Notes: generated by a model from the letters alone, not told the origin. Counted from the first letter of the stretch, positions 3,658 to 49,200 are shown. The stretch: 64,000 nt of DNA from Planctomyces sp. SH-PL62 (GCA_945893045.1 CAMDEA010000004.1:40717-104716), one strand, 5' to 3'. Translations and numbers: made by a program.

Positions 3658-3752
3658 CTGTAGCCCGACCCCTTGTGGGTCGGTCGATTCGACATGTCTC
3701 GGAGAATTCACACGATTCTGAATCCTCCGACCCACAAGGGGTCGAGCTACAG
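3658..3752. repeat. REPIN-like inverted repeat with GTAG...CTAC termini (two inverted hairpin units)
   Basis: Left arm ctGTAGcccgaccccttgtgggtcgg (3658..3683) is the reverse complement of the right arm ccgacccacaaggggtcgaGCTACag (3727..3752) with one mismatch; 43-nt spacer. Each arm also self-folds (cgaccc-cttgt-gggtcg). It lies in the divergent intergenic region between the two propeller genes. Confidence 0.9.
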
Positions 3753-3901
3753 TTTGCCTAACGCGACGAATTAGCCAGCCGTGCGATCGCATCGACGGTA
3801 CTCGTGAAGCCTCTGCGGCAGTATGCTGAACTGCGATCCTGAAGCGAATTGTCTGGCCGAAAGGCCGCTCTTGATTGGCGATTCTTCAACTGCGAGGACG
3901 A

Positions 3902-6900
3902 ATGATGCGACAACTTTCGACGGCTCACTTTTGCGGTCTGGTTTTGAGCGGGATGTTGTGGGGAGCGATCTCCGGCGGTGTCTCCGTCGCGGCGGATTGG
4001 CCCACCTATCGCGGCGACAACGCTCGCGGCGGTGCGTCGGCGGAGACCGTTCGAGTTCCGTTGCAGCCGCGCTGGATCGCGAGCGCTCCCGGCGTTCCGC
4101 GAATCTCGTTTTCGAGTGCCGAGGGGCGAGTCATCGAAGGGTTTTTGCTGGGACACCGTGCTAAGTACGATGACGCCATCCATCCGGTCGTTGTCGGCCA
4201 GCAAGTTTTCTTCGGGTCATCGGTCGATCATCAGTTGCACTGCGTCGATCTGTTGACCGGCGCGGAACAGTGGACGTTCTACAGCGGCGGGCCGATCCGG
4301 CTCGCGCCGACGGTGAATGGCGGCCGCGTTTATTTCGGTTCCGATGACGGGTTCGTTTATTGTCTCGCCGTTGCCGATGGCCGGCTGCTGTGGAAGCTGC
4401 GGGGCGGCCCGGCGGACGAGTGGTTGCTGGCGCGCGGCGAGATGGTGTCGCGCTGGCCGGTTCGTACCGGCGTGCTGGTGGATGAAGGAGTCGCGTACTT
4501 CGGCGCGGGAATCTTTCCGCACGACAATGTCTTCCTGACCGCGGTGAATGCGGCCGACGGTTCGATCGTCTGGAAGCAGGACAACATCAGTTCGCTCGAC
4601 GCCGGGCGAAACGATTTGTCGCCGCAGGGATACCTGCTCGCGAGCGACAATCTGCTGGTCGTTCCCTCGGGGCGATCGCTGCCGGCGGTGTTCGATCGCG
4701 CGACCGGACGCTTGCTGCACAAGCGCGAATTCGGTTTTCGTTCGACAGCCGGAGGCGTCGTCGGCAGCGTGCAAGCGTTGCTCGCCGACGGGCAAATCTA
4801 TTCGGCCGGGCCGCATCATCTGCTGGCCATGGAACAGAAGACCGGCGACGTCGGTTTTGGCTGGATCGCCGGGCGGCAGATGTCTGTCAGCGGTGACGCG
4901 GCCTACGTCGCCACCGGTGATGTTGTCGCGCGGCTGAATCGGTTGGAGTACGCGACCAACAGCCGCCGCCGGCATCAACTGGAATTGGACATTACGAGCT
5001 TCAACAACCAAATTCGTGCTGCCACCGCCGTCCCCGACAAGGCAGTCGAGATTCGCAAGAAGATCAGCGAGGCTCAAGCGGAACTCAAACGCATCGCCGA
5101 TGTCGGCATCGTCTGGCAGACAAAGTCGACGGACGATTCCGCGCTGCTCGCGGCCGGCGATCTCGTGTTTCTCGGAGGCCAGGGGCGCGTCGCGGCTTAC
5201 TCGGCGAAGTCCGGTGAAAATGTCTGGCAAAGTCACGTCGACGGAGAAGCGCGCGGCTTGGTGATTGCCAACGGACATCTGCTGGTCAGCACGAACACCG
5301 GGCACATCTACAACTTCGCGTCCGCCGAACTCAAGCTGGCCGCGGTGCCACCCGCCGCGAAGCCGATCGACAATCCATTTCCTGATGACAACCTGACCGC
5401 GATGTATCGGCAGGCGGCTGAGGAAATCCTCAAACGCTCCGGCGCGAAAAAAGGCTTTGGCCTGATCGTCGGCAACGAACAAGGGAGGTTGGCTTACGAA
5501 CTGGCGAAGCGCAGCGAACTGAAAATCTACGCCGTCGAAGCGGACGCGAAGAACGTGGCGGCTGCACGGGCCAGCCTGTCGCGAGCCGGACTCTATGGCA
5601 CGCGGATCGTCGTCCATCAGGCCGATCCCGCGAACGTGCCGTACTCGAACTACTTCGCCAACGTCATCGCGTCCGACTCGCTGTTGAGAAACGGTGCGCT
5701 GGTTGGCGATCCGCAAAAGCTCGCGCGGCATTTGAAACCGTTGGGGGGCGCGATCGTGCTGGGCCAACCGGCAGGAGCATCCGGAAAGTCCATCGAGATC
5801 GCCGACGTCACGGCTTGGCTGCAACGAACCGAGCTGGGCGAACATGCTCAACTCAAAGCCGCTGATGGCTGGGCCACGCTGGTGCGCGGTGCGTTGCCGG
5901 GAGCTGGCAACTGGTCGCATCAATATGGCAATGCGGCCAACACGGCGGTCAGTCTCGACAAGCGCGTGAAGGGCGATCTCGGCGTCCTGTGGTTCGGCGA
6001 TCCCGGACCCGGTGACATGGTCAATCGCCATGAAGGGGCGGTCGGCCCGCTCGCGACCGGCGGCCGATTGTTCGTCCAGGGCGAGGACACGATCCAAGCT
6101 TACGACGCTTACAACGGCACGTTCCTGTGGAAGTACGAAAACCCGAAAGCGCTCCGCACGGGCGTCTTTCAAAATCAAAACCCCGGCAACCTCGCGGCGT
6201 CCGACAATCGACTGTTCCATTTCGTGAAAGACCAGCTCATCGAACTCGATGCCGCCACCGGCGAGACCAAACGCATCCACCGTCTGCCGCCCGACAAGGA
6301 CAACGGCAACTACGAATGGGGCTATGTGGCCACAGAGAACGGCTTGCTGTTCGGCACGGCCACCATCCGCAAGGAATTGGAAGCGAAGCTGAAGCGGCGC
6401 GGGCTGAAGACCGATGACGCAACCGATGGCATCTTCGCCATCGACATCGAAACCGGGAAACACCTTTGGACTTACAACGGGGCGAGCATCTCGCATCACA
6501 CCATCGCCATCAGTCCGGAGAACGTCTATTTCATCGACAGCTCGATCACTCCCGAACAACGCGCGGAGCTGCTGCGAGCGGACAAGACCGAGCTGGCTAA
6601 ACTGACCGGCAAGGAACTTGAGATCGCGGAAGATCGCGCCAAGAAAGCCGACCTCCGTCGAGCCGTCGCGTTGAACGCTCGCACTGGCAAGCTGCTGTGG
6701 GCCAATCCGGTGGACGTGACCGATTGCAGCGACATCGGCATCGGCGGCGGCAAGCTCACGCTGATGGTTCACGACAACGTCCTGCTCCTTGGCGGAGCCA
6801 ACGCCAACGGCCACTATTGGAAACAGTTCGTCGCCGGCGAGTTCTCGCGACGCCGGCTGGTCGCGCTCTCCGCGCTGCACGGCTACAAGCTGTGGGCGAA

Positions 6901-7888
6901 GGACGCCAATTATCGGCACCGTCCCATCATCGTTGGCAGCCAGGTCATTGCCGAGCCTTGGTCGTTCGACCTCGGCAGCGGCGAACAGAAGACGCGGCAG
7001 CATCCGCTGACCGGCGCGGCAGAGCCTTGGAGCATCATGCGGACCGGGCATCACTGCGGCATGTTGACCGGTTGCGAATCGGGCATGTTGATGTTTCGCT
7101 CCGGAGCGACTGGTTTCTACGACCTCGATTCCGATCAAGGGACGCGACACTTCGCCGGTCATCGCCTCGGCTGTTGGATCAACGCCATCCCGGCCGGCGG
7201 CCTGGTGATGATCCCCGAAGCCAGCGCCGGCTGCGTCTGCCTGTTCTCGATTGCCTCAACCATCGTCATGGAACCGCGCGAGACGCGCCGCCCCTGGACG
7301 ATCGTCAGCGCGGTCGGTGCGCAGACTCCCGTGCAGTCGATGGCCCTCAACCTCGGCGCTCCCGGTGATCGCAAAGATGCGGACGGCAAAACGTGGCTCT
7401 CGTACCCGCGACACAAGGCGTATCAGGAAACGTCGCTCGACATCAAACTGGATCTCAAACCCAAATTCAAAACCGGGGGCCAATTCACCAGCGTCAGCGA
7501 ATCGCTGCAGCCGATTGACGGGACCGAGTCGCCTTGGCTCTATACGTCCTGGGCCGAAGACGTGGAACAACTCACGCTGCCACTCCTCGGCCCGAAGGAC
7601 CAGCCAGCCACCTACACCGTGCGGCTGCACTTCGCGCGACTTGGCACGAGCGACCGCGAACCGATCGTCTTCGATGTCCAATTGCAGGGAAAAACGGCGG
7701 TGGAGAATTTGACGTTGCCGATCGTCCTCGCTTCGTCCGCGGGAGATGCGGACGGGCACGCGACAGCGATCGTCCGCGTTGTCGAGAATGTACAAGTGAC
7801 CGACAACCTGGTTGTGAACTTCGTCGCCAAACAAGGCAAAGCTCGGTTGAGCGCGATTGAGGTTGTGAGAAACGAAGCCGGACGATGA
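3902..7888 (+). CDS. Secreted PQQ/BamB-like beta-propeller repeat protein with internal methyltransferase-like module and C-terminal malectin-like domain
   Basis: Track ORF 3875..7888 starts at TTG; I prefer ATG 3902, preceded by GAGGA. Signal peptide MMRQLSTAHFCGLVLSGMLWGAISGGVSVAADW. Propeller-type repeats: WPTYRGDNARGG, GRVYFGSDDGFVYCLAVADGRLLWK, GSIVWKQ, GENVWQS, GTFLWKY, GKHLWTY, GKLLWAN, GYKLWAK. MTase-like block GFGLIVGNEQGRLAYELAKRSELKIYAVEADAKNVAAARASLSRAGLYGTRIVVHQAD. Malectin-like C-terminus ATYTVRLHFARLG..IVFDVQLQGK. Confidence 0.9.
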   Translation: MMRQLSTAHFCGLVLSGMLWGAISGGVSVAADWPTYRGDNARGGASAETVRVPLQPRWIASAPGVPRISFSSAEGRVIEGFLLGHRAKYDDAIHPVVVGQQVFFGSSVDHQLHCVDLLTGAEQWTFYSGGPIRLAPTVNGGRVYFGSDDGFVYCLAVADGRLLWKLRGGPADEWLLARGEMVSRWPVRTGVLVDEGVAYFGAGIFPHDNVFLTAVNAADGSIVWKQDNISSLDAGRNDLSPQGYLLASDNLLVVPSGRSLPAVFDRATGRLLHKREFGFRSTAGGVVGSVQALLADGQIYSAGPHHLLAMEQKTGDVGFGWIAGRQMSVSGDAAYVATGDVVARLNRLEYATNSRRRHQLELDITSFNNQIRAATAVPDKAVEIRKKISEAQAELKRIADVGIVWQTKSTDDSALLAAGDLVFLGGQGRVAAYSAKSGENVWQSHVDGEARGLVIANGHLLVSTNTGHIYNFASAELKLAAVPPAAKPIDNPFPDDNLTAMYRQAAEEILKRSGAKKGFGLIVGNEQGRLAYELAKRSELKIYAVEADAKNVAAARASLSRAGLYGTRIVVHQADPANVPYSNYFANVIASDSLLRNGALVGDPQKLARHLKPLGGAIVLGQPAGASGKSIEIADVTAWLQRTELGEHAQLKAADGWATLVRGALPGAGNWSHQYGNAANTAVSLDKRVKGDLGVLWFGDPGPGDMVNRHEGAVGPLATGGRLFVQGEDTIQAYDAYNGTFLWKYENPKALRTGVFQNQNPGNLAASDNRLFHFVKDQLIELDAATGETKRIHRLPPDKDNGNYEWGYVATENGLLFGTATIRKELEAKLKRRGLKTDDATDGIFAIDIETGKHLWTYNGASISHHTIAISPENVYFIDSSITPEQRAELLRADKTELAKLTGKELEIAEDRAKKADLRRAVALNARTGKLLWANPVDVTDCSDIGIGGGKLTLMVHDNVLLLGGANANGHYWKQFVAGEFSRRRLVALSALHGYKLWAKDANYRHRPIIVGSQVIAEPWSFDLGSGEQKTRQHPLTGAAEPWSIMRTGHHCGMLTGCESGMLMFRSGATGFYDLDSDQGTRHFAGHRLGCWINAIPAGGLVMIPEASAGCVCLFSIASTIVMEPRETRRPWTIVSAVGAQTPVQSMALNLGAPGDRKDADGKTWLSYPRHKAYQETSLDIKLDLKPKFKTGGQFTSVSESLQPIDGTESPWLYTSWAEDVEQLTLPLLGPKDQPATYTVRLHFARLGTSDREPIVFDVQLQGKTAVENLTLPIVLASSAGDADGHATAIVRVVENVQVTDNLVVNFVAKQGKARLSAIEVVRNEAGR

Positions 7889-14212: not shown

Positions 14213-14452
14213 CAAGACGAGTCTTGTCTCTACTCCGAAGGAGTTGCGTCTCACAGCCCAGGGTTGTTCGCGAAGCGAGCTACCCTGGGAAAAACACCCA
14301 AACGGACCATGTACCCCGAAGGGGTTCCGTCACATGGAATTTCCGACGGCCGCAACCCCTTCGGGGTAGAGATTGCAATGAACTGCGAACCCAGGGTAGC
14401 CGCGATGCGCGGCAACCCTGGGCTATGTGGCACAACTCCTTCGGAGTAAAGA
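14213..14452. repeat. Compound palindrome: two ~105-bp multi-hairpin units in inverted (head-to-head) orientation
   Basis: Unit structure: TACTCCGAAGGAGTTG, 8 nt, AGCCCAGGGTTG, 13 nt, CTACCCTGGG, ~21 nt, TACCCCGAAGGGGTT. The left copy starts at 14227. The right copy (ending at 14452) is its reverse complement, with conserved blocks and variable linkers. A small hairpin caagac-ga-gtcttg (14213..14226) follows the stop codon. The element fills the intergenic gap between the DUF1553 and DUF1501 genes. Confidence 0.9.
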
Positions 14453-22767: not shown

Positions 22768-22782
22768 CCTGCGGATAAACTC

Positions 22783-36788: not shown

Positions 36789-36813
36789 CGCGGCTATTCG
36801 TTGAAAGGGTTGT

Positions 36814-36872
36814 GAGCGACAAGGCGCTAGCCGTCGGTTCTTCAAAGACCGGCGGCTAGCGCCGTTCCGCTC
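36814..36872. repeat. Family E inverted repeat in the moxR-DUF58 gap
   Basis: gagcgacaaggcgctagccgtcggt (36814..36838) / accggcggctagcgccgttccgctc (36848..36872), with a few mismatches. Confidence 0.85.
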
Positions 36873-36888
36873 AATGAAGCGCCATCAC

Positions 36889-37896
36889 TTACTTCTTCCG
36901 CTCCGGCACGATTTCGAGAAGCCGGCGGACGATGTCGTCCGTCGTCGTCCCTTCGGCCTCGGCGGCGAAGCTGCACGAGAGACGATGACGCAGCACCGGG
37001 AGCGCCAGATGACGCACGTCATCGCACGACACGTTGATCCGACCATTCAACGCGGCGAGACACTTCGCACACAAGATCAGAGCTTGGCTGGCGCGGGGAC
37101 CGGCTCCCCAGGAGATCTGGTCCTCGATGAAATCCGGGACACCCGGTTCGCCCGGTCTCGTCGCGCGGACCAGATCGACGGCGTACTGCGTGACATGCTT
37201 CGATACGGGAAGACTCCGCACGAGCCTCTGCATGTTAAGGACGGTGTCTTGATCGCAGATCGGCTGAAGATCGACGGTCGCGTTCGACGTCGTCCGCTCG
37301 ACGATCTGTTCTTCTTCTTCCAAGCCGGGGTATTTGATGAACGTGTTGAGCAGGAAGCGGTCCTTCTGAGCTTCGGGCAACGGATACGTCCCTTCCTGAT
37401 CGATCGGGTTTTGCGTCGCCAGCACGAAGAACGGTTTTGCGAGCGGGTATGTCTTGCCGCCCGCCGTGACTTCATGCTCTTGCATCGCCTGCAACAGCGC
37501 GGCCTGCGTCTTCGGCGGCGTGCGGTTGATTTCGTCGGCGAGCACGATGTTGGTGAAGATCGGACCGGCCACGAACACCGTCACGCGCTTGCCGGTCGTG
37601 TGGTCATCCTCGATGACATTCGTTCCGACGATGTCCGACGGCATCAAGTCGGGCGTGAATTGGATGCGTTTGAAATTCAACGACAGCAGTTGGGCCAACG
37701 TGTTGATCATCAACGTCTTGGCCAGGCCGGGAACTCCTTCCAAGAGATTGTGCCCGCCGGCGAAGATCGTGATCAGCAATTCCTCCAGAACGGATCGCTG
37801 CCCGACGATCGCACGGGACATGCCGTCCAACATGCGGGTGTGAAGGTCTTTCAATTGCGCTAAATCACGCTCGATGTCGGCAGGTTCGTTGTTCAC
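36889..37896 (-). CDS. moxR: MoxR-like AAA+ ATPase
   Basis: GQRSVLEELLITIFAGGHNLLEGVPGLAKT (Walker A), NIVLADEINRTPPKTQAALLQAMQE (Walker B), FVLATQNPIDQEGTYPLPEAQKDRF. Track start 37971 translates the AATGACGAA palindrome (MIRHSDFVIPSSLGTSSFVI); I prefer GTG 37896 (VNNEPADIERD). The start is uncertain. Confidence 0.93.
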   Translation of the reverse strand: MNNEPADIERDLAQLKDLHTRMLDGMSRAIVGQRSVLEELLITIFAGGHNLLEGVPGLAKTLMINTLAQLLSLNFKRIQFTPDLMPSDIVGTNVIEDDHTTGKRVTVFVAGPIFTNIVLADEINRTPPKTQAALLQAMQEHEVTAGGKTYPLAKPFFVLATQNPIDQEGTYPLPEAQKDRFLLNTFIKYPGLEEEEQIVERTTSNATVDLQPICDQDTVLNMQRLVRSLPVSKHVTQYAVDLVRATRPGEPGVPDFIEDQISWGAGPRASQALILCAKCLAALNGRINVSCDDVRHLALPVLRHRLSCSFAAEAEGTTTDDIVRRLLEIVPERKK

Positions 37897-37908: not shown

Positions 37909-38041
37909 AGAAATGACGAATGACGAAGTACCCAATGACGAAGGAATGACGAAATCCGAATGACGAATCACGATGGTGGGGCCCTGATTTGGGTTTCGTC
38001 ATTCGGATTTCTTTCGTCATTGGGTATTTCGTCATTCGTCA
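37909..38041. repeat. Long imperfect palindrome built from tandem AATGACGAA / TTCGTCATT motifs
   Basis: Five AATGACGAA-type motifs on the left (37909..37967) and four TTCGTCATT on the right (37994..38041), around the centre tcacgatggtggggccctgatttggg. It fills the gap between the DUF4159 gene and moxR. Confidence 0.9.
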
Positions 38042-38046
38042 CTTTC

Positions 38047-39651
38047 CTAATGGCTTAACGCGTACGTGATGATGTTCATGACAACTCGCGTCGCATCGTC
38101 GGCCGCGAGTCCTTTCGCGTAAGCGTTGGACTCGTGATTGACGCCGCTCATCAGATCGAACGGCGAATAAATGACGGCCAGCCGACCGTCGAGAAACAGG
38201 CCGTAAAACTCCGGCATCTCCAGCGTCGGGTCGTCGCGGAGCGCGGGAGGGGTGTATTCCACGCGGTCCACGGGATTCCAGCCGCTGGCAAATAACGGAT
38301 GCGTCGCGGGGAGCTTGATCAACTCGCCTTCGGGAATGACTTTTTTCAGTTCGCGCCGGAAACCGAGATCGAACGGCTTTAAGCCGGCCGCCGCGGTCGC
38401 GACAAGCATCCCGCCCCGTTGCAAGTAATGCCGCAGCCCTTCGACTTCCTCGCTGGTCAATTGAAAATCGTAGTGGCCGGTCATGAAGACGAGCGGAGTG
38501 TCGGCCAATTGTGGATCATCGAGCGACACCGCGACCGGCGAGTAATCGACCTCCAGCCCAGTATTCTCTTTGAGGTTTTGGAGCACGCTGTTTTGCAGCG
38601 CCGGGTTCACGTCCCAACTGCCGCTGTAGGAGACCATCCCAAACCGGAACACATCACCGGCGGCTGTCCGGCCGTCATAGACCGGAAACTCTTGAGCGAG
38701 AAAGCGGCCATACTCGGTCGCTCCCAGGACGTAGGCGACGATATTCACTCCGAGACGCAGTGCCGATTCGCCAACGAAATGTTTTCCCTGCGGATGATAC
38801 GGCTCGCTGCTCCAGGCGGCTCCCATGCCGACGGGAACCAGGATCGCGGCCGCTCGCGTGCCGATATCCAGCGTGTAGATGTCCGGCGGCTGCTGAAATT
38901 GCACGCCATTCACCAGAGTCATCAACTGCTGCACGCGGTATCGCGAGTTGAATAACGGATGATCCTGCGGTGCGCGCATCAGCCGCTTCTGCGGAAAAAC
39001 TTTTCGCATCTCGCGAGCCACCGCCTGCGAGAACTCATCCCGCCCGCGCGCGGCGTTGAACAGGATCGTGCCCCCCTCGGTTAGAAACTTGCGGAGGTTC
39101 TCGACTTCTTTCGGAGTGAACGTGAAGTCGTAATCGCCGGCCATGAAGAGCAACGGGATATCGACCGGATCAAATCCGGGACTCGCGAGCGGCTTTGTGG
39201 CGTACTGATAGTTGTTGCCGTCAGCCAACCGCGCGTTGACTGTGGACATCAGGTAGGAGCCGTCATTCGGAAAGCTCTTCCACTGCTCGAACTTTTGCAC
39301 GGTGCCGTCGGTGTGAACGTACTCCAGCGTTTCGCCGTATTCGATCTTGTGCATCACCGTGAGATTCGTCGGCGGTGGCGGCGTGCGAGTCTGCGTTTTC
39401 CGCTGGCCGGGACCGGGGTCGGGAATCACACCGGTATCTTCGCCGCTGGCCTCCATCTTCTGCGGAGCCTTCACCGGCGGCGGAGGAGGCGCTTCGGCGG
39501 GAGGAAAGTTGACTCGCCGCTGAGCAAACGCTGTGGAAGACGAACCGATCCAGATGCCGAACAAGATCAGCGTGCCGAGAAGTAGCCGAACTCGTGAGAG
39601 TTCGGACCGAAGTCTCACGACTTCGGCTACAGAACAGATTGTTTGCATCAT
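38047..39651 (-). CDS. Secreted protein with two DUF4159 domains
   Basis: DIPLLFMAGDYDFTFTPKEVENLRKFLTEGGTILFNAARG and DTPLVFMTGHYDFQLTSEEVEGLRHYLQRGGMLVATAAAG. Signal-like LLLGTLILFGIWIGSSSTAFAQ. The ATGATG start overlaps the upstream stop. Confidence 0.85.
   Translation of the reverse strand: MMQTICSVAEVVRLRSELSRVRLLLGTLILFGIWIGSSSTAFAQRRVNFPPAEAPPPPPVKAPQKMEASGEDTGVIPDPGPGQRKTQTRTPPPPTNLTVMHKIEYGETLEYVHTDGTVQKFEQWKSFPNDGSYLMSTVNARLADGNNYQYATKPLASPGFDPVDIPLLFMAGDYDFTFTPKEVENLRKFLTEGGTILFNAARGRDEFSQAVAREMRKVFPQKRLMRAPQDHPLFNSRYRVQQLMTLVNGVQFQQPPDIYTLDIGTRAAAILVPVGMGAAWSSEPYHPQGKHFVGESALRLGVNIVAYVLGATEYGRFLAQEFPVYDGRTAAGDVFRFGMVSYSGSWDVNPALQNSVLQNLKENTGLEVDYSPVAVSLDDPQLADTPLVFMTGHYDFQLTSEEVEGLRHYLQRGGMLVATAAAGLKPFDLGFRRELKKVIPEGELIKLPATHPLFASGWNPVDRVEYTPPALRDDPTLEMPEFYGLFLDGRLAVIYSPFDLMSGVNHESNAYAKGLAADDATRVVMNIITYALSH
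39582..39630. repeat. Double-hairpin REPIN-like element (family A), GTAG...CTAC termini
   Basis: GTAG-CCGAACTC-gtga-GAGTTCGG-a-CCGAAGTC-tcac-GACTTCGG-CTAC. It covers codons 8-24 of the DUF4159 gene (SVAEVVRLRSELSRVRL). Confidence 0.92.
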
Positions 39652-41330
39652 GGCAGGCTGACCTCGATGGTCGGTTTCTTTTCATTCGGATTGGCACGAT
39701 ACCAACCGACCTCCGGCGTGACTGTCACCGACTTCAAGATTTTCCGCTCCGTGCCCGCGGCCTGTACCGGCCCAACAATGTTGAGTTGATACGCCGGAGT
39801 GAGCTGGAGTTTCGCATCCGCGTCGTATTGCCAACTCCGCACGATGAGCGGTTCCAACGATTGCGGCAACGGAGTGAAGCCGTTTTTCAACACCGGTGCC
39901 GGCGAGTTGCGAATGTTGGGATCTTGCGCGCCAGCCGGTAAGGGCGTAGCCGGTTGCGCTGTCTTCATCTCGACGACCAATCCCAAAGGAACCTGCCCGC
40001 TGACTTGGGCCACCACAAAGTTCAGCATCTGCACCGCCGGCAAACGCGGCTTTCCCGCGACGGTCGGAGTCGGAGCCCACCCCGGTGGGAAAGTGATGTC
40101 TTGAGGCGTTATCGGCGAATTGATCAAGGTCAACGGACCAGTCGCCATGTAGATCTTGTACCCATTGGGATTGGGGACCATGTCGCGGATCACGAGATTC
40201 GTCATCTGGATCGTCGCGCCGCCGTGATAGTAGGCCGATTGCGATCCAGCGATCGTGATATCTTCCAACGTCCCCGCCGCGCTGGTCAGCGTCATGCCGT
40301 GCGTGCAGTCCTTGATGAGCAACTGCTTGACCATGAATCCGCTGCCGTACCAATACAGACCCTGAGCACATTTCTCGATCACGTTGTTGGTCATGATGCA
40401 CTCCGGCTGGCCGTAGCAGGTGATGCCGCTCGGATAGTTGCCGCGGATGGTGTTGCCTCGGACTTCAATCAACTGACAGCCGATGAGGTAGAGGGCCGGT
40501 TGTGGCACGGGAAACGGGTCGTCTCGCTCGAACTGGTTATCCGCCACGACGGCGGAATCACACGAGGTGATCATGAGACGGCTCATGCCGCCGAACCGGT
40601 TCTTGATCACGTTGATCCGCTCGCCCGGCTTGGCACCAGTGTTGTCGATGCCCGTCGGCTGAGCGTAGATGTTGATGAGTTCCGCTCGTTGAATGTCGAA
40701 CGTCGATCCGGTCGCGGCTTCCAAGATCGCCGTGGGATCGGGCTGAGGCATTCCCGCTGGGACTTCTTTCTTAGGCGGCCGCGAGACGATCGCCGCATTG
40801 CGCTTTCCTTGAGGCAGGCCCAGCCGCCCCGATACGACGAAGCCGCCTCCCTTGGCGATCTTGAGCATCCGCTGTTCGGGGTCTTCGGCCACGAGCCGGA
40901 ATTCGTGCTGATCCTTCGCCGACTTGGAAGCATCCATGCGGATGTAGCCGTAGCTTTCCACGAGACCATTCGCACAGAGCACGATCGGTCCCGCCGCGAC
41001 TTTGAATTGCAGCACGGCTCGCGGATCGAGCGACAGTTGTTTGCAAGTGATCTGCGCCTCGTCATTGCGGTTGAAGGTCACGGTGTCATCGCGCGCAATC
41101 ACGACATCGTCGTCCGCAACAGGAACCTTGCCGCCGCGCCACGTCGCCGGGTCAGTCCAGTCTCCACCGCCGGATGCGTTGGAATAGATCTCGTCGGCGA
41201 AGCCGATCCCGGCAGCGCAAACAATCGTAGCCACGCTCGCCAGAGCGTGGGTGTATTGCCGTTGAACATCCCACGCTCTGGCGAGCGTGGCTACCATCGC
41301 GATTGTGAATCGGCTCAGCGATTTATTCAT
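39648..41330 (-). CDS. Secreted right-handed parallel beta-helix repeat protein
   Basis: Repeats IKNRFGGMSRLMITSCDSAVVADNQF, IEVRGNTIRGNYPSGITCYGQ, NNVIEKCAQGLYWYGSG, IKDCTHGMTLTSAAGTLEDITIAG. The track ORF extends to 41426; ATG 41330 forms an ATGA overlap with the upstream stop (MNKSLSRFTIAMVATLA..). Confidence 0.8.
   Translation of the reverse strand: MNKSLSRFTIAMVATLARAWDVQRQYTHALASVATIVCAAGIGFADEIYSNASGGGDWTDPATWRGGKVPVADDDVVIARDDTVTFNRNDEAQITCKQLSLDPRAVLQFKVAAGPIVLCANGLVESYGYIRMDASKSAKDQHEFRLVAEDPEQRMLKIAKGGGFVVSGRLGLPQGKRNAAIVSRPPKKEVPAGMPQPDPTAILEAATGSTFDIQRAELINIYAQPTGIDNTGAKPGERINVIKNRFGGMSRLMITSCDSAVVADNQFERDDPFPVPQPALYLIGCQLIEVRGNTIRGNYPSGITCYGQPECIMTNNVIEKCAQGLYWYGSGFMVKQLLIKDCTHGMTLTSAAGTLEDITIAGSQSAYYHGGATIQMTNLVIRDMVPNPNGYKIYMATGPLTLINSPITPQDITFPPGWAPTPTVAGKPRLPAVQMLNFVVAQVSGQVPLGLVVEMKTAQPATPLPAGAQDPNIRNSPAPVLKNGFTPLPQSLEPLIVRSWQYDADAKLQLTPAYQLNIVGPVQAAGTERKILKSVTVTPEVGWYRANPNEKKPTIEVSLP
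41227..41294. repeat. Family C REPIN: perfect 25-bp arms, GTAG...CTAC termini
   Basis: GTAG-CCACGCTC-gcca-GAGCGTGG-g (41227..41251) / c-CCACGCTC-tggc-GAGCGTGG-CTAC (41270..41294); 18-nt spacer. Each arm also self-folds. Confidence 0.93.
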
Positions 41331-44116
41331 GGCCGCTCTCCCGGAGATGACCCGTCGATGAAGTTGCTCAGCCAATGCAATTCTTCGTCGGAGACGGCGC
41401 GCACTTGGAACCCGTCGATCTCGCACGCTCCGGTCAGCAGATAACTCATCACGATGCGGCCATCCAAAGCTTGCGGTGGGGCATCAAGCATGTATCCCAC
41501 TTTCCGCCAGGCTCCATACGTCCGCTCCACGAAGTAGGTGCTGGTCCCTTTCACGGGGACCGTGTCGTTGCCTTGGCCGTAAAGGCTCAGCGAAACGTGC
41601 GAGTTGAATCCGGGATACGCCGTCAACAAGTCTTCGCGATACCAGCATTCGACCCAGTAATGACCGCTCGTGGTCAGGTTCGGCAACGGACGTTCGAGCG
41701 TCAGGTATCCCAGATAAACCGGATGAGCTTCCAGCAATCCAACGTGCGGTCCCGACAGCCCCAGGCCGCGCGCGAACTTCAGATTGACCGGCTTGCCGAA
41801 CCACTGCGGTTCTTCCGGCTCGAAGCCACTGACGACATCGGCGAACGGCGGCAACTTCGGCGAACCTCCGTCCGTCGGAGGGACAGCGCGAGCCAGACGT
41901 TCCTCGAACTGTTTCTTGCGATCGGCCAATTTCTCTTTCTCGAAGTATTTGGGAAATGCCTGTTCCAGTTGAGCGAGCCGTTTCAGTGCTTCAGTCATCT
42001 GACCCATGCGAACCAGACATTCCGCCATGCCATGCAGCGTGCGGTCTCGATAGCCGGCCCACTGTCGCAGTTGCAGCAAGACTTCGTAGTTCCGCAGCGA
42101 GGCGTCGTACTTTCCGGCGACACGATCCGCCTCGGCTCGCAGGAAGCGATACAAGCCTTCGAGCTTTTGATCCGGGTAATTCAACTCAATCTTGTCGAGC
42201 AACAACCGAGTCTCGCGGATGTCTCCCGTCCGCAGTTTTTGTTCGGCGACTCGCAACAGCGCCCCGCGTGTGACCGCTTCGGATTGCGCGGTCGCCAGGA
42301 ATGCGTCCCCGCCCAACGTGGCGGCTATGCGGTACAGCTCGCCGGCCGCTTTGATCTGGCCGGCTTCCGCGAACAGGTCGCCGCGGTGGATCGCCACGAG
42401 GCGCATGTCGGGATGTTCGAGGCGACGATGCTTTTCCAAGATCGCGTCGAATCGCCGCGCCGCTTCATCCAGGTCTTTGAATTGCCGATGCACGATGTCC
42501 GTCGCCGTCAGTTGGATTCCCACTTGCAGCGTCGGCAGCTTGTTGAATTCTTGATTGGCCTGTTCGAGCACCTTCTCCATCTCGGCTTTGCGACCGTTGT
42601 GTCCCAGAGCGGTGATCAACGACTTGAACAACTCGGCGCGAAATTGCGGATCGAGTCCCAGTGCGGCCAGGCGATGCTTCGCCAACTTTTCCAGGAGCGG
42701 CCAACGCTCCGGTGCTTCCGACGACATCAGCAGATCCAAGATCCGATCCTGCCGCTCGGCCGAAAGCTTTTCGACTTGAACGTCGGCCGCTAATTCTCGA
42801 ATGACGTATCGCATGGAAAACGGACTGATCGAACCCGGTGCTCCCCACACATGCACTCGGCGCTGAAACTGCGGCAACGATCCTCCGCCCGACAACGTCA
42901 CCACATAATCGCCGGGAGCAAAGAAAACATGCCGCACGCTCCGGCCGACCGCTTCCGTGCCGTCGCCGAAATTCCACTTGAGTTGAGTTTCCTCCGGCAA
43001 ATCCCCCTGAGCTTCAAAGCGGACGAGATACAGCGTCGAATCGCCAGACGTCACCAGCGAATCATCAATGCCGTAACCAAACGACGCGCCGGTATTTGGA
43101 CCGGCCACTTCCAACGTGGCGACGTGAGCGTAATCCGGATGCACGAACATGTCGCGCGGCACATAGGCCCAGACTTTCGCGGCCGGCGGAACCCACAACA
43201 ACGAACATCCGCCGTAAGTGCCGGGGCTTTCCTTCAGCACATGAAACATCTCGATGGGATGCACGCCGGCCTTCAGTTCAATCTCCGCTCCGATGGACTT
43301 CGTCGGAATCGAACCGGTCAAGCGTTGATTCGATCCGGGCCGGTCGCAAACTTTGAAGCCGTCGATGAAGAGAAACGACGCGTCCTCAGAGTTCACGAAG
43401 AACCGATACACGCCGTCGGCTTTGATATTCAAGTGCCCGCGATACGTCACCGCGTAATCACGCGGATTGGCCGGGCGAACGGGATTGCTGTTCTGTACCA
43501 TCTCCGAGACAAGCCCATTCGCCACGACGGGGTCGCTCTTCGTCAGCCCGTCGCGAACCGCCGTCCAATTGGAAATGTCGGTCCCCTTCCAGTCACGAGC
43601 CTCCAGGACGATCCCTTCGGGAATCGGCGCGGCGGCTGCCGGCGGCGCGGCGGGATTTCTGGCATGAACCCAGTACCAGACGTCCGCCCCATGCCGCGGA
43701 AATTGAATCAGCGTGTCTCCATGAGGAGCATGAGACAGCACAGCCACCGGCAGCGCAGTTCCATCGGCACAGACGACCGCGACATCCGATCCATCAGGCT
43801 TCAACCAGCCACCGGTTGGCAACCGAGCCACGATTGACTTCGATGTCGATTGCGCCGGACTCAAACCCATCAGTCGGAGCGTGTATCGCAACTGATAACC
43901 ATCGAGCCAAGCGGGCTGTTTCTCCGGCAACAGTTCGACGACGTTCTTCTGCGGCTCGGCAGGCGCTGCGGTGGCCTGTGCGAAAGCCGCAACCAAGTAA
44001 CCCGAAGCGTGAGCGAGGGCGAGCGCTCCAAGCAGCATGAATTTCGACAGCATCCGCGTCACGTGGCGCATCCGCCCTCGCTCACGCTTCGGGTTACATG
44101 TCGAATACCACTGCAT
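41327..44116 (-). CDS. Secreted PA14 - PKD - TPR-rich protein
   Basis: PA14: YRGHLNIKADGVYRFFVNSEDASFLFIDGFKV..GVHPIEMFHVLKESPGTYGGCSLLW. PKD: LKWNFGDGTEAVGRSVRHVFFAPGDYVVTLSG. A long TPR-like helical region follows. The track ORF runs to 44176 and would overlap the upstream gene by 52 nt. I prefer ATG 44116, which has GAGG upstream and lies 8 nt after the upstream stop; ATG 44071 or 44053 are also possible. Confidence 0.82.
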   Translation of the reverse strand: MQWYSTCNPKRERGRMRHVTRMLSKFMLLGALALAHASGYLVAAFAQATAAPAEPQKNVVELLPEKQPAWLDGYQLRYTLRLMGLSPAQSTSKSIVARLPTGGWLKPDGSDVAVVCADGTALPVAVLSHAPHGDTLIQFPRHGADVWYWVHARNPAAPPAAAAPIPEGIVLEARDWKGTDISNWTAVRDGLTKSDPVVANGLVSEMVQNSNPVRPANPRDYAVTYRGHLNIKADGVYRFFVNSEDASFLFIDGFKVCDRPGSNQRLTGSIPTKSIGAEIELKAGVHPIEMFHVLKESPGTYGGCSLLWVPPAAKVWAYVPRDMFVHPDYAHVATLEVAGPNTGASFGYGIDDSLVTSGDSTLYLVRFEAQGDLPEETQLKWNFGDGTEAVGRSVRHVFFAPGDYVVTLSGGGSLPQFQRRVHVWGAPGSISPFSMRYVIRELAADVQVEKLSAERQDRILDLLMSSEAPERWPLLEKLAKHRLAALGLDPQFRAELFKSLITALGHNGRKAEMEKVLEQANQEFNKLPTLQVGIQLTATDIVHRQFKDLDEAARRFDAILEKHRRLEHPDMRLVAIHRGDLFAEAGQIKAAGELYRIAATLGGDAFLATAQSEAVTRGALLRVAEQKLRTGDIRETRLLLDKIELNYPDQKLEGLYRFLRAEADRVAGKYDASLRNYEVLLQLRQWAGYRDRTLHGMAECLVRMGQMTEALKRLAQLEQAFPKYFEKEKLADRKKQFEERLARAVPPTDGGSPKLPPFADVVSGFEPEEPQWFGKPVNLKFARGLGLSGPHVGLLEAHPVYLGYLTLERPLPNLTTSGHYWVECWYREDLLTAYPGFNSHVSLSLYGQGNDTVPVKGTSTYFVERTYGAWRKVGYMLDAPPQALDGRIVMSYLLTGACEIDGFQVRAVSDEELHWLSNFIDGSSPGERP
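43997..44097. repeat. Family B inverted repeat, perfect 23-bp arms
   Basis: gtaacccgaagcgtgagcgaggg (43997..44019) / ccctcgctcacgcttcgggttac (44075..44097); 55-nt loop. It encodes CNPKRERG...LAHASGY at the N-terminus of the PA14 gene. Confidence 0.93.
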
Positions 44117-44124
44117 TCCACACC

Positions 44125-44829
44125 TCACTGCGGCTCGTAAGTGATCCGCAACTTCCAAAGTTTGGCACCATTCCAAAATGGCGAATGCGTGCGGAACCAG
44201 CCCATCGCTTCATCGGTTGTGATCTGCCAGCCGAAATTCGGAACGGTTCCCGAATACCACAACTCGACGTCTTCCGTGACGTTGAAAGTATGCTCGCCCG
44301 CGCCTTGGATTGAAGCCGAGGCCGTCGCCTTGACGGCTCGGTCTTGTCCCAGCCCCAAGGCACCTGGTGTGTGCCATTCCAAACGATTGGGTCGCGTGAT
44401 GCGATACTGGTGTGAGACGCCCGCACCCCAGCCCTGCAAGATACGGCGAACCTGCACGCGAACGCCGGTCGCGGGATAGACCTGAGCGTACGGCACGACC
44501 CATTCCGCCTTTGTGATCCGCTGACCGGGCGGAATCTTTTCGAGCGGATAACGGATCAGGAACGACGTCTTGGGAGTCAGGTCAATCTGATGATTGCCAT
44601 ATTCTCCGTTGGCATTCACGACCGCCGCCCAACTCATCCGCGGAGCATCCTCCGAGATCGCGGCCATCAGTTCGCAATCGGCGTCGGTCAGCACGATCGT
44701 CTTCGCCGACGCGGTTGATGCCATCAGGACGAGCAGCAGCACAGCCAAGTAGCCACGCTCGCCAAGAGCGTGGGTTCTCACGAATTCGCCCACGCTCTTG
44801 GCGAGCGTGGCTACCGAAGGATGACTCAC
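44125..44829 (-). CDS. Small secreted Trp-rich beta-sandwich-like protein (possibly DNRLRE-type domain)
   Basis: GTG 44829 forms a GTGA overlap with the upstream stop. Hydrophobic core AVLLLVLMASTASA. The body (RITKAEWVVPYAQVYPATGVRVQVRRILQGWG..NRLEWHTPG..FNVTEDVELWY..WQITTDE) resembles accessory carbohydrate-binding/DNRLRE-like modules. The functional call is weak. Confidence 0.65.
   Translation of the reverse strand: MSHPSVATLAKSVGEFVRTHALGERGYLAVLLLVLMASTASAKTIVLTDADCELMAAISEDAPRMSWAAVVNANGEYGNHQIDLTPKTSFLIRYPLEKIPPGQRITKAEWVVPYAQVYPATGVRVQVRRILQGWGAGVSHQYRITRPNRLEWHTPGALGLGQDRAVKATASASIQGAGEHTFNVTEDVELWYSGTVPNFGWQITTDEAMGWFRTHSPFWNGAKLWKLRITYEPQ
44749..44814. repeat. Family C REPIN: perfect 26-bp arms, GTAG...CTAC termini
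   Basis: GTAG-CCACGCTC-gccaa-GAGCGTGG-g (44749..44774) / c-CCACGCTC-ttggc-GAGCGTGG-CTAC (44789..44814). It covers codons 6-27 of the small secreted protein gene. Confidence 0.93.
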
Positions 44830-46235
44830 GGCATCTTCTCCACGGGGACATACAGCTTGCCGAACTTCGGCGACCAGGCGATCGCTTCGACCGTCGGGTT
44901 ATTGACCGTCATCTGCACGGCCGACGGTTTGAATTTCCCTTCGGCGTCCAAGTCGATCAGACAGATGCGCCCATTCGCTCCGATCGCCAACTGATTGGCT
45001 TTTTCCAAGACCAACGGAGTGCTGTAATACACGAAGTTGTCGTTGGTCATGGTCTGCGGGGCCAGCGTGAGTTGCCCATCGGCGTGCTCCATCCGATTGA
45101 TGCGTCCGTCGTAAATCAGCGTTGCGATATAGATCGACGGAACGGTCGGATGCACGGCGACTCGGTAGCGATACGCGGCATACGGCTGAACGTAGAAATA
45201 ACAGTAGCGCCCCAATCGGTCGGAGAGCACCCAACTGACCGGACCGGAGTGACCCGCCAGAAAAACGGCATCGTCATTGAAGGGGGCGTAGCTGTACGGA
45301 GCCGGCACACTGGCGAACGAGTAGGTGGTCGCCTCCATGTACTTTCGCAAGACGAGCGGCTGCCCGGCGGCTTTCGATTGTTCGATGGCCGCGAGCTTCG
45401 CGATTCGCGCCGCATTGGCGGCAACAGGATCAAGCGGCGGAAGCGGCACGATGGGCTTCACATCTTCCGGCGGCGAATTCGGCGGAGCGAAGGCCGGCAA
45501 TCCGTCGGGATCGAGCACGAACCAGCCGATGGTCGTGACCAGTTTCTTCGTGCGATCCAGTTGCTGCATGTTGGGAACGTACAACCGCGTTATCGCCGAG
45601 TTCAGCGCGAATCCGCCAGCCAGCGCTCCGCAACTGAAGTCCGCTCCGCGCGCCGTGGCGAAGATGAGCTTCGGTTGCGGTTCGTCGAGACCGTAGATCA
45701 ACAGATGATCGAACTCGGCCGAGACGGCCGGATCGGTCCGCTTGTCGTCGGGCAACGGTTCGACATCGTGCCAGACATAAAGCAGCGGCAGCCGAGGATG
45801 ACACAGCAGACCGAGCACATGGTTCGGTCGCGCACTCAACGCAGCCGGCTTCGGCAACGTGATCGTCACCGGATCGCCGGCAACGATTTGTCCCTGAGCA
45901 TCCAATCGGAAGAGCGACACATGCGCTGGAGATTTCGGACGATGCGCCACGGCGAGCACGCCGGCGACATCATTGACCGCGACATGCCTTGCAGCCGGAG
46001 CAACCACGGTGGCCACAAACGGCAACGGAGTTTCCGGGACGGTGCGCACGCGAATTTCACGCTGCGCGAATGCGGGATTGGCCGCACTGATGAAGCAAAA
46101 CAAGACCGCAACGGCCCGCTTGAATTCTGGCAGAACGATGTGGGCAGAACGATGGGAAGAAAATGATTGAGTCACCTTGTTTGACTGCATCATTCTTGTT
46201 CCCATCGTTCTGCCCACATCGTTCTGCCAATTCAC
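44826..46235 (-). CDS. Secreted protein, beta-propeller-like (lactonase/YncE-style repeats)
   Basis: Recurrent blade-end motifs CHPRLPLLYVWHD, AITRLYVPN, VHPTVPSIYIATL, WSPKFGKLYVPVE. Signal-like FKRAVAVLFCFISAANPAFAQ. GTG 46235 overlaps the upstream stop (GTGA); alternative ATGs at 46193 and 46190 lie in the loop of the palindrome. Confidence 0.7.
   Translation of the reverse strand: MNWQNDVGRTMGTRMMQSNKVTQSFSSHRSAHIVLPEFKRAVAVLFCFISAANPAFAQREIRVRTVPETPLPFVATVVAPAARHVAVNDVAGVLAVAHRPKSPAHVSLFRLDAQGQIVAGDPVTITLPKPAALSARPNHVLGLLCHPRLPLLYVWHDVEPLPDDKRTDPAVSAEFDHLLIYGLDEPQPKLIFATARGADFSCGALAGGFALNSAITRLYVPNMQQLDRTKKLVTTIGWFVLDPDGLPAFAPPNSPPEDVKPIVPLPPLDPVAANAARIAKLAAIEQSKAAGQPLVLRKYMEATTYSFASVPAPYSYAPFNDDAVFLAGHSGPVSWVLSDRLGRYCYFYVQPYAAYRYRVAVHPTVPSIYIATLIYDGRINRMEHADGQLTLAPQTMTNDNFVYYSTPLVLEKANQLAIGANGRICLIDLDAEGKFKPSAVQMTVNNPTVEAIAWSPKFGKLYVPVEKMP
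46128..46229. repeat. ~100-bp hairpin with perfect 31-bp arms made of tandem GCAGAACGATG motifs
   Basis: tggcagaacgatgtgggcagaacgatgggaa (46128..46158) / ttcccatcgttctgcccacatcgttctgcca (46199..46229); 40-nt loop that contains ATGATG on the minus strand. Confidence 0.93.
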
Positions 46236-49200
46236 GGCATTCGATCCGGTGCCGCCAACCGTTGGTAGTAGGTCTTCACGGCCTCTTCGTAACCCGGCGG
46301 AACGGATCGCGCGGGGTCATCCAGGACGTTGCCACGGACACGCTGTTCGCGGGGCAGACTCGCCTGGAATCCTGAGTGGGCCTGGTGAAACACCTGCAAC
46401 ACGCCGCGAACTCGTTCGAACGTCTGCTGCTGCAAACGAAAAATCTCCGCCGATGGCCGATCGTTGAGGCTGTGCAGGTTCGCCTGCATCTGGTCAATCA
46501 ATTGGTCGAGGTGTTCGGTCGGCAGATAAAGATTCTTGAGGTCTTTGCGGATCGTCTTCAGTCGCTCGATGATCTGTTCCTGCTTGCCGTTCATGTCGCG
46601 CATCATTTCGGCGACGCTGGCATCGAGTTTCCCGCCCTGACGTTCGACGATCGAATTCTTTGCTTGCGGCTTGTCCATCCGATTGATCATGTCGTCGGTC
46701 CATTCGCCGACATCGCTGAGACTGAACTTGGCGTCATCCGATTCCACCTTCCGTCCACCGATGCCGGTCGAGGTGTCAGATTGCGGATCGTTGCTCTTGG
46801 TTTCTTTGACCGTGTCCTTCTGGTCGGGGACACGATCCTGGCCTTCCTGGACTTTGTCTCGGCCACGGCGATTGATCGATTCATTGCCGACGGCCACGCC
46901 ATGAGCACGCGCCCCTTGCCGACCGATGCGCGACGCTCCGCCGACATTTGTCGTGGGAGGTTTTTGATTGCCGGTCGCTGACGCGGCGGCCGTCGAGTTC
47001 AAATCGCCACCCTGCTTGCCGACGTCGCCCTTCTCGTTGATGTTGAAAGCCGCGTTGAGATTGTAGGTCTCGTAGTTCTCCTTCATCGCGTCTTCTTCTT
47101 CGAGCAGATCGCCGACGAGGTCTTCGAACTTTTCCTGAATGTGCGGCTTGACCTTGTTCCCTTTGCGATCGGATTGGTTCGGGAAGCTTGGTTCGCCACC
47201 GGGAGTTTTCGCCAGGCTGAGATTCTTGAACTCCTGCCGCATCCCTGTGTCTGCTCGCTGCAATCCCGGCACCGCGCTATCGGGAAAGAGATAGTCGTTG
47301 GGCTTCGATTCGTCGTCCCCTTCGCCCTTTTTCTTTTTCTGTTGAGCCACTTCCGCCTGATGAATGATCTCTTCCAGCTTCAACCCGTCGGGTTCATCGA
47401 GCCGATCGTCGGAGTAGCCTTCCTTCAGCTTGCCCAACTCGGCCTGACGGTCGAGCTGGCTCTTGTCGAGTTGGTCTTTCTCCGCCAACAGCTTTCTCGC
47501 CGCTTCCGTCATTGCCTCGCGCAGCTTCGTGTAGATGTCCTCCAGCGCGGCCGCCGCTTGTGTCTGTTGCTGAGCCGCCAGCGACCAGTTTTGCGCTTCG
47601 ATCGCTGATTGAGCCGACTTCTGCATCGCGAGCAACACATCACCGACTAACGCATCGGCGGTTTGAGCAAACGCTTCGCTCAACGGCGACTCGGATTCCG
47701 CAGCTCGTTCGGCCAGCCCGGAAAACGCGGTGGCGGCCAATCCGCACAGTTCGATGAGTTTTTGCTGCCGTCGCGCGGCCGTGACGTGCGTGTTTGGCGA
47801 GCCGGAGGGCGTTAGCCCCCGGACAGTTGAATCGGAATCCGTCCGGGGGCTAACGTCCACCGGCTCGCCTGTTCGATCCGCGAATCGAACCGATTGATCC
47901 CGCAGAATCGCCTGCCGATCAGCGAGCATCCGCAGGAACGGCGTCATGTGGGCCAATTCCCATTCCTTGCGAAAGTGCATGTACTGCTTGTGAATCTCGC
48001 CCAGACTTTGCAGCGTCCGAGCCATTGTGGCTCGCGCGTCGGCAAATGAGGTGCGACGACCGGCCGCGTCATCTCGCGTGGCCACGCTGTCCAATACTCG
48101 AATGGCTCGGATCATTTCCGAATCCGCCAGCATCGCGACTGACAACCGCAAGCTGCCGGCCGGAGGTGCCATCTCGCGAGCGATCCGGCCGGCCGTTTGT
48201 CGCAGTTGATCCTGTGTCTTGGAATGCTCCGCCGCTTCCATGACCAGTGCCTTCACCCGTTCCGGAACATTTCCATCGGCGGCAGGATCGGCATCGAGCT
48301 TGCGAATCAGCACATCGAGCGCCGCATGAAGTTTCTGCTCGACCGCAATCGCGCCCGCGATCTCCGCTTCGGATTTCAGAATCTGCTCGTACAGCAACTG
48401 CAACTGCGAACCATCGCCCGTCATGAGCAACAAGTGCGTGGTTCCTGTCGTCCATGTCTCGGCACGATCCGGCCGCGCATCCGATGCACGAGCGGCCAAC
48501 TCAATTCGATCGCCTTCCGAAACTCCAAAGGTGATCGGCGTGATTTCGACAGGATTCGTTGTCTGCCGAGCGTTGCCTGCCGGCCAAGTTTGAAGCGCGA
48601 TCCAACCGTCATCCTCCATCGGCTCTGCGTTGACGTTGATCTTCACCTTGCGGAAAAACAGCCCGGTGCGTGACAGCCCAATGTCATCCAGCGCATCCAC
48701 CTGCAACGCCATCGCCGAGTCGATCGGCAACTCGCCGTTCGTCGGCAGTCCCGTCAACGTCGGGCGCGGGAGTTCATCGGCCACGGTTCGGATGTTGAAC
48801 CAAGCACTGAGATGCGGAGGTCGATTGGCTCGCTCCGTTTCCAGCGCGTACTCAGTGACGTTCGCAAACGTCAGTTCGCCAGAAAACTCGGTCGCACTGA
48901 GCTTCTTCAATTCGATGTCACCCGAAGCGTGAGCGAGGGAGGATGTTTCCGCATGGTGGTCGGCGGCGACTGGAAGACTCACTCCCTCGCTGACGCTTCG
49001 GGTGACATGGTGATTCGCGTCGTCGGTTGAAGATGCCGAACCTTCCCGCAGCCGCAACCGGACTGCTTCCACCGGTTGATCGAACACGAAATTCAGTTGT
49101 GCTTGGGTTCCTTCGAGCGCCTCCAGATCGCCGCTGGTCTGCACCGACTTGTCGGGCAGTCGCGTGTACTCTGGAAAGTGGTAGTTCACCTCGACCGATT

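Follow-up and report, generated by a model that had tools for sequence, protein, structure and literature searches.

GTAG-headed REP doublets in an uncultured freshwater planctomycete and their probable spread by a divergent tyrosine transposase

In a 64,000-nt stretch of DNA from Planctomyces sp. SH-PL62 (GCA_945893045.1 CAMDEA010000004.1:40717-104716), hereafter the window, we found that the palindromes with a free GTAG head are repetitive extragenic palindromes (REPs), mostly paired as inverted doublets of the REPIN type (REP doublets forming hairpins). The reading that we favour, with a probability of about 70%, is that these elements were spread by a REP-associated tyrosine transposase (RAYT) of the kind represented by RB11751 of Rhodopirellula baltica, and that the other palindromes of the window are mobile elements as well. 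The GTAG elements are those of an already known system, present here in a new lineage. The host of the window is a freshwater member of the Planctomycetota that belongs to an uncultured lineage: 96% of the words sampled from 38-45 kb were present in one public lake-water metagenome run, and the nearest genome found, the metagenome-assembled genome (MAG) GCA_945905295.1, is 85-92% identical in nucleotide sequence across a syntenic 21-kb locus.

The GTAG palindromes are REP units arranged as inverted doublets

An inverted-repeat scan recovered every palindrome listed in an earlier reading of the window (the sequence-only reading) at, or a few bases from, the position given there, and together with a degenerate hairpin pattern it bore out the count of about 20 copies, several of them ending in GTAG...CTAC. 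Of inverted repeats whose arms reach 16 nt or more, the window has 16, against 0-3 (mean ~0.6) in 30 first-order Markov simulations. The degenerate pattern, written for families A and C, matched nine times in the window and never in 100 shuffles; with the two units of the element near 3658, the window holds 11 GTAG-type units. Long palindromes were confined to 3.6-49 kb, the part from 49 to 64 kb being without any. The eight unrelated families of the sequence-only reading reduced to about five kinds: a GTAG superfamily that unites families A and C and the 3658 element, a D/E kind whose two families share the core GGCG-YY-AGCC-S-CCGG, family B, short-repeat palindromes, and a compound element.

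Families A and C and the 3658 element follow one plan, in which a free GTAG is followed by a stem of 7-8 bp that starts with CC and ends with GG and by a loop of the form G-Y-S-A (GTGA, GCCA, GTCA). The units are mostly paired as inverted doublets with their heads outward, closed by GTAG and CTAC. Folded singly, the units leave the 4 nt of GTAG free, pair over 7-8 bp and close with a loop of 4-5 nt (z-scores -4.7 to -5.2). Folds and pattern alike supported the proposal that A, C and 3658 are REP units in REPIN-like doublets: all three are REPs as these are defined (an unpaired 5' GT[AG]G plus an imperfect hairpin, 20-40 nt), the B, D/E and short-repeat palindromes are not, and the doublets are REPINs in that two inverted REP units with a short spacer form a long hairpin. 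In family A, one doublet lies at 20980-21042, between a PSD1 stop (20959) and a DUF1501 gene; one with a 1-nt spacer lies at 39582-39630, just past the ATGA stop/start overlap of the DUF4159 gene and open in frame; and a degenerate one, with GTCG as its head, lies at 20325-20388 within the gene 17951-20959 (+). Family C comprises an element with a truncated second hairpin (25964-26016) and two doublets, one within the signal-peptide coding region of a beta-helix gene (41227-41294) and one after a GTGA stop/start overlap (44749-44814). The 3658 doublet (3660-3750) reads GTAG-CCCGACCC-CTTGT-GGGTCGG ... CCGACCC-ACAAG-GGGTCGAG-CTAC.

The repeat boundary falls exactly at GTAG and CTAC, with no target-site duplication; as for a target motif of the doublets, C or T is only weakly favoured at position -1. 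Lacking a duplication, the GTAG doublets are not MITEs (miniature transposable elements derived from DDE transposons), which combine terminal inverted repeats (TIRs) with target-site duplication. The sole candidate for a duplication was a direct repeat of 14 nt that encloses the 3658 element's outer repeat. This doublet sits within a 14-nt inverted repeat, CTGGCCAATTCGTC / GACGAATTAGCCAG (3632-3645 / 3765-3778), itself bracketed by identical direct repeats GATCGCATCGACGG (3618-3631 / 3785-3798), the left one abutting it and the right one 6 nt off; the surroundings (3618-3798) look like the target duplication of a larger carrier element.

Stem pairing was kept in other genomes, where 173 of 179 units (38 variants) were fully paired at four degenerate positions, compared with 39 on average, and never more than 56, after shuffling. 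The stems of the two units differed in 53 of 69 doublets, and mismatches averaged 0.13 within units versus 2.3 between units; pairing is kept by the unit and not by the doublet. When units were read from GTAG, the non-Watson-Crick pairs comprised 41 G.T and 1 A.C, and this bias was seen in both units of the doublets although these lie on opposite strands. With the asymmetry present in both units, a DNA-strand-specific substrate accounts for it better than one transcript does, and we infer that the folded DNA strand with a 5' GTAG would be the active form, as in REP/RAYT systems. Stems that co-vary also speak for another explanation, which we regard as unlikely: that the palindromes are selected RNA-level signals (intercistronic stabilisers, terminators or translation control) whose repetition reflects convergent need. 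Stabilisation of mRNA is a known property of REPs (Di Nocera, De Gregorio and Rocco 2013; PMC3733652), and the likely start codons at the elements 43994 and 46128 lie in the spacer or loop. A single transcript, however, cannot explain the G.T asymmetry in two opposed units.

The elements recur across the Planctomycetota

The arms of the GTAG elements are repeated elsewhere, as the sequence-only reading had expected, both in the source metagenome and in other genomes. Scanning of the A/C hairpin pattern across 185,579 species genomes placed it in at least 119 genome stretches, about 109 of which are from Planctomycetota (Pirellulales, Planctomycetales, Gemmatales and two labelled Kuenenia); among the matches listed, the remainder are Verrucomicrobiota or Lentisphaerae, save one labelled "uncultured bacterium", and several relatives carry multiple GTAG copies. 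A first pass over other genomes gave 47 doublets, and with a looser pattern the number of distinct doublets, 49-113 nt long, rose to 72, the window's own included. Palindromes of B, D, E and AATGACGAA type were also found in unrelated planctomycete loci. In the source metagenome, many contigs matched an element alone and diverged at 39582/39630, 43995-43998 and 49003, the divergence at 39582 and 39630 falling exactly on the ends of the A doublet. Carriage by phages was not supported: viral contigs yielded the GTAG pattern in 13 stretches and the B pattern in 12, with a RAYT in none.

Element families replace one another at orthologous sites

We compared the sites of the elements with those of three syntenic relatives, L121 (85-92% identical to the window) and L124 and L126 (~80%). 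At the junction of the 1267-aa and 469-aa genes, the window has a short-repeat palindrome (46128), L121 a B element, L124 another palindrome and L126 no recognised family. The 469-aa/234-aa junction has a C element in the window (44749), in L121 and in L126, and a compound region of 440 nt in L124. Between the PA14 and beta-helix genes, C in the window (41227) corresponds to E in L121, B in L124 and 135 nt with no recognised family in L126, and between the beta-helix and DUF4159 genes, A in the window (39582) corresponds to a B-like element in L124 and to extra genes in both L121 and L126. The DUF4159/MoxR junction carries the AATGACGAA palindrome in the window (37911), the same type in L121, an E-like element in L124 and B in L126. 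Finally, the MoxR/DUF58 junction carries E in the window (36813), A in L121 and C in L126, the L124 locus ending short of the site. The GTAG elements thus differ among close relatives in presence and in family, in line with the expectation of the sequence-only reading that positions would vary. With presence and absence at orthologous sites and no target-site duplication, the elements behave as mobile DNA.

In the dense minus-strand array at 36-50 kb nearly all junctions have a palindrome, a placement that would suit RNA-level signals. However, such signals do not account for close relatives that swap families at these junctions or have empty ones, nor for the recurrence of the same families at unrelated loci of many genomes. 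L121 also differs from the window in gene content: a toxin-antitoxin-like module, consisting of a 75-aa protein and a PemK-family toxin, occupies 6682-7256 at the site of window 43994-44125, and extra small genes are present at two other junctions.

Several copies are read in frame within genes

Contrary to the extragenic location implied by the sequence-only reading, four copies in the window lie in frame inside genes and are necessarily translated. The A element at 20325 lengthens the PSD1 domain by ~19 aa, in the loop between YRQxS and DxxNRLL. The E palindrome at 33894-33956, in a BatA/VWA-family gene on the minus strand, is part of a 96-nt in-frame insert in the BatA-family protein; the same site is empty in L121 and has an in-frame B element in L126. 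The other two, a D palindrome (47796-47869) and a B element (48915-49008), are in frame within the 1267-aa gene 46232-50035 (-). In the 1267-aa orthologues the first of these sites holds D in L121 and nothing in L124, and the second holds a degenerate B in L124 and, in L121, an element of the E type, always in frame. L121 further has an A element in the 798-aa gene, at a place where no more than a decayed remnant of it is left in the window. Copies within protein domains are hard to reconcile with RNA-level signals. The D element differs from its L121 counterpart (2913-2971) by several arm changes, each mirrored in the opposite arm, which could mean either that selection or repair preserves the hairpin or that a copy of a different subfamily landed at the site.

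At five junctions the downstream open reading frame (ORF) is open through the element into the hydrophobic core of a signal peptide, from an ATGA or GTGA stop/start overlap or from an ATG in the element spacer, and starts downstream of these elements would give signal peptides of merely 13-15 residues. This suggests that the junction copies may be translated as signal-peptide n-regions. The elements between MoxR and DUF58 and between DUF4159 and MoxR are truly intergenic. In a crude survey of 74 GTAG doublets in other loci, 14 opened into the downstream ORF, 2 were intragenic and 58 were intergenic-like.

In several elements an upstream start leads, with the frame open, into a signal peptide, and the right arm of B reads (A/S)LA(H/D)ASG(Y/D) in several genes. 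This might be taken to mean that the repeats are driven by protein coding, as recurrent peptide modules (for example the signal-peptide ALAHASGY) selected as protein. We hold this to be highly improbable. It is largely refuted by the occurrence of the same DNA in other frames, on either strand and in genuine spacers, and the sequences are palindromic; moreover, multiples of three are not favoured among the doublet lengths (17, 27 and 28 across the three classes), and the large intergenic-like share in the survey, crude as that test is, also runs against it. A common reading frame for the B arms was considered and set aside, being suggestive and not significant and contradicted by the copies in L121 and L124.

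RAYT genes of related genomes are flanked by GTAG REPs

The sequence of the R. baltica RAYT RB11751 (given in PMC3733652) has both HUH and Y motifs, and its family extends to more than 860 homologues (clusters) across the Planctomycetota at ~60% identity. Proteins of this type match the NCBIfam model REP_Tyr_transpos at E-values of 1e-7 to 1e-10, below its cut-off; they are also below the cut-off of Pfam Y1_Tnp and have no Pfam hit on record. Most are annotated as hypothetical. We fetched three genes of the RB11751 type and inspected their flanks. In L128 (a Gemmataceae MAG) and L130 (a Planctomycetaceae MAG), the RAYT gene lies between arrays of two or more doublets of the type GTAGCCGAAGTC-GCCA-GACTTCGG, which belong to the same superfamily as A and C, and in Roseimaritima multifibrata the gene is bracketed by GTAG hairpins with a different stem. 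In L130, the TAG of a flanking GTAG is the stop codon of the RAYT gene. The link between REP and RAYT that the sequence-only reading had anticipated therefore holds in the Planctomycetota for this type of hairpin, with arrays on both sides of the gene in two planctomycete genomes, and L128 and L130 carry complete REP/RAYT systems (REPtrons). RAYT genes flanked by arrays are a further point against RNA-level signals, which are compatible with the elements as a secondary effect but not as their origin.

We propose that a single-copy RAYT with an HUH-Y1 active site, of the divergent RB11751 type, would recognise the folded single-stranded hairpin with its 5' GTAG, and would cut and rejoin it, so that copies could spread without target-site duplication. 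Copies would survive where they are harmless, that is between cistrons and in the 5' part of signal-peptide regions, and those in protein loops or linkers would be tolerated by being read through in frame. Any effect at the RNA level would be a side effect of this process.

The remaining palindromes and their possible mobilisers

Family B is an inverted repeat of 23-27 nt whose head, GTAACCCGAAGCGTGAG, resembles that of A, GTAGCCGAAGTCGTGAG. Two more B elements lie at 26036-26126, directly 5' of the signal-peptide region of gene 25886-31057 (+), and at 43994-44100, at the 5' end of the PA14/PKD gene (- strand), where the spacer holds the likely ATG and the right arm codes part of the signal peptide. 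The fold of D-type units comprises a head, an 8-bp (4+4 bp) stem and a G-Y-Y-A loop. An E palindrome fills the MoxR-DUF58 spacer (36813-36873), and a degenerate D/E-type element lies at 31129-31172. The three palindromes that had been described as iteron-type are built from ACGAATG, ACGATG or ACGGATG repeats (ACGRATG-type): the CCACGGATG palindrome at 22565-22648, a palindrome with five copies of AATGACGAA in its arms in the DUF4159-MoxR spacer (37911-38044), and one whose arms each have two copies of GGCAGAACGATG, located where two genes meet (46128-46229).

The first of these is part of a three-part composite at 22506-22768, together with a solo D/E-type unit (22506-22529) and a degenerate E-like doublet (22725-22768). 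Within it, a segment of ~218 nt (22523-22740), with E-like terminal units around the CCACGGATG palindrome, shares 80% identity with a locus of the L121 genome that is not syntenic with it (L118, 2058-2273), which indicates that the composite was moved or copied as a unit. In both genomes it adjoins a DUF1501 gene, in opposite orientation relative to the gene. The compound element occupies 14231-14448 (14213 in the sequence-only reading), in a PSD1-DUF1501 spacer, and consists of GTAG-like and C(TTCG)G hairpins enclosed by clamps of the form CCCAGGG...CCCTGGG; its building blocks recur in L124 at other junctions. A single long hairpin with arms of 24-27 nt (16602-16655), whose status as a family is weak, lies between divergent genes.

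Since the B, D/E, short-repeat and compound palindromes are multicopy and phylum-wide, occupy the same sites and differ among relatives, we infer that they too are mobile palindromic elements. A fairly unlikely alternative to sharing the history of the GTAG elements is that the B, D/E and short-repeat palindromes are of the MITE or TIR type and were moved by another enzyme (a TIR-associated Y1, a class-3 Y1 or a DDE transposase), independently of GTAG and RAYT. In its favour, their inverted arms are long, the GTAG head is missing, and the B arm by itself forms no fold; TIR repeat families tied to TIR-associated tyrosine transposases (TIRYTs) have been described, one TIRYT of R. baltica included (PMC3733652), and class-3 Y1 proteins, mainly of Planctomycetes, are flanked by atypical multicopy hairpins (PMC6006769). 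Against it, 80 loci of RB2408-type TIRYTs (321 kb) have unrelated flanks with no A/C, B, D or short-repeat (AATGACGAA) motif and the E core at chance level (3 matches), so that this enzyme was rejected as mobiliser of B, D/E and the short-repeat palindromes, none of which belongs to its TIR repeats. No class-3-like Y1 motif was present in any fetched locus, comparison of filled and empty sites by eye gave no clear target-site duplication at B or E insertions, and both the A-like head of B and the G-Y-Y-A loop of the D-type fold hint at kinship with the GTAG units. The RB2408-type genes themselves (L132-L193) are bracketed by inverted repeats of the type AAAGGTGTCAGGAACC / GGGGTCAGG, their own terminal repeat, spaced 50-80 nt upstream and 0-35 nt downstream, which fits the GGGGWSAS motif reported for TIRYTs.

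Several points weigh against spread of the window's elements by a RAYT. We found no RAYT in the window, where the sequence-only reading had likewise noticed no transposase, nor in ~1.2 Mb of fetched REP-bearing loci, the RAYT loci themselves excepted; a Y1 transposase regular expression and phmmer with 7-11 RAYT and TIRYT queries returned, in window and fetched loci, just two degraded RB2408-like fragments. The cognate gene that would act in the source genome is thus assumed from relatives. The B, D/E and short-repeat palindromes have no GTAG head and none was seen beside a transposase in the fetched loci, and the B arm alone forms no hairpin (z -1.2). Covariation and placement at junctions would fit selection on RNA structure equally well. 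The taxonomic range of the exact-pattern scan is a lower bound, with matches in no known order, and the several-fold higher depth over the elements in the source metagenome gives copy estimates that blend the host genome with other community members.

Comparison with known systems

The closest known elements are the GTAG REPs of R. baltica (GTAG-20, -21 and -22) and of Opitutus terrae (GTAG-17 to -20), which occur with RAYTs and have intragenic copies (PMC3733652). They share with the window elements the GTAG head, a stem of 6-9 bp, inverted dimers, several families per genome, intragenic in-frame copies and REPs that flank a RAYT gene. Peptides coded by intragenic copies in R. baltica (VRLRS; SRIRQEF...RILANPA) are those coded by A and by the GCCA-loop class, and this match makes A and C most likely members of the R. 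baltica GTAG families. The window elements differ in that their host is a freshwater uncultured lineage and in their stem variants. The sequence-only reading had called the density of co-existing families unusual; co-existing GTAG families, intragenic REPs and "a plethora" of tyrosine transposases in R. baltica had in fact been described (PMC3733652), and reading-frame-preserving REP insertions and "double-foot" REPs are also on record (PMC6006769). That a single hairpin plan extends over the phylum, that non-GTAG families co-occur with it and that families replace one another at the same site seems not to have been described before.

REPIN-RAYT systems of Pseudomonas and Enterobacteria (Bertels and Rainey 2011, PMC3116915; the bacterial interspersed mosaic elements and TnpA-REP of E. 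coli) resemble those considered here in their two inverted REPs with a spacer, in a single-copy domesticated Y1 protein flanked by its REPs, and in intergenic placement without target-site duplication. By contrast, the planctomycete RAYT is very divergent, scoring below the Pfam Y1_Tnp and NCBIfam cut-offs, the doublets are mostly heterodimers, and a sizeable share of them overlaps coding sequence. In this last respect they recall the Rickettsia palindromic elements (RPEs), in-frame palindromes in functional genes that add 20-30 residues in tolerant loops; RPEs, however, are CGTC-tagged (PMC3733652), have no known transposase, live in hosts of another lifestyle and bear no sequence relation to the window elements.

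A further likeness concerns the Rfam family RF01687, Acido-Lenti-1 (Weinberg 2010, PMC2864571), whose 5' hairpin and CUA tail (CCUAGCgC-UgAC-GcGCUAGG-CUA) are the reverse complement of a GTCA-loop GTAG-CC...GG unit. Both A units of 39582-39630 (region 39578-39639) match the model on the CTAC strand, at 25.1 and 23.1 bits against a gathering score of 37, and the 3' half of the model is unmatched, so this is resemblance and not membership. The candidate small RNA family Acido-Lenti-1 may itself be a REP-type repeat.

On a broader reading, which we put forward tentatively as a possible one, the Planctomycetota and some further bacteria of the PVC group (Planctomycetota, Verrucomicrobiota, Lentisphaerae) would hold in common an ancient repertoire of several palindrome classes that turn over at the same few landing pads, families replacing one another at a given site among close relatives, with elements routinely supplying coding sequence and the non-GTAG kinds moved by the same divergent RAYT or by an unrecognised enzyme. 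The landing pads may be cistron junctions, signal-peptide 5' regions and protein linkers, and the coding parts supplied may be start codons, signal-peptide n-regions and loop inserts. Spread of GTAG REPs by an RB11751-type RAYT, our preferred explanation, would carry the GTAG REP and RAYT system beyond two reference genomes, into a whole phylum whose members are mostly uncultured. It would explain why planctomycete gene calls contain many odd "hypothetical" N-terminal extensions and many repeat peptides, and why contigs break in planctomycete assemblies. One conserved gene cluster with different elements at the same sites in four relatives is a compact natural test set, in which it can be asked whether the palindromes are junk that is tolerated or serve in expression control or in the function of signal peptides.

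Gene content and minor features of the window

The window has a G+C content of ~60% and codes for typical planctomycete proteins: two PSCyt1/PSCyt2/PSD1 and DUF1501 pairs, a sulfatase, a MoxR-DUF58-BatA/VWA cluster, a DUF4159 protein, and PA14/PKD and beta-helix proteins. No tRNA genes were found in it, and an Rfam scan gave no match at gathering score, the permissive matches being generic miRNA-precursor hairpins and the sub-threshold Acido-Lenti-1. AT skew is strongly negative (-0.21) at 46001-48000, within the 1267-aa gene, which has no Pfam domain or known function. A peak of metagenome depth at 37088-37671 has no palindrome and corresponds to the conserved AAA core of MoxR, common to many members of the community.

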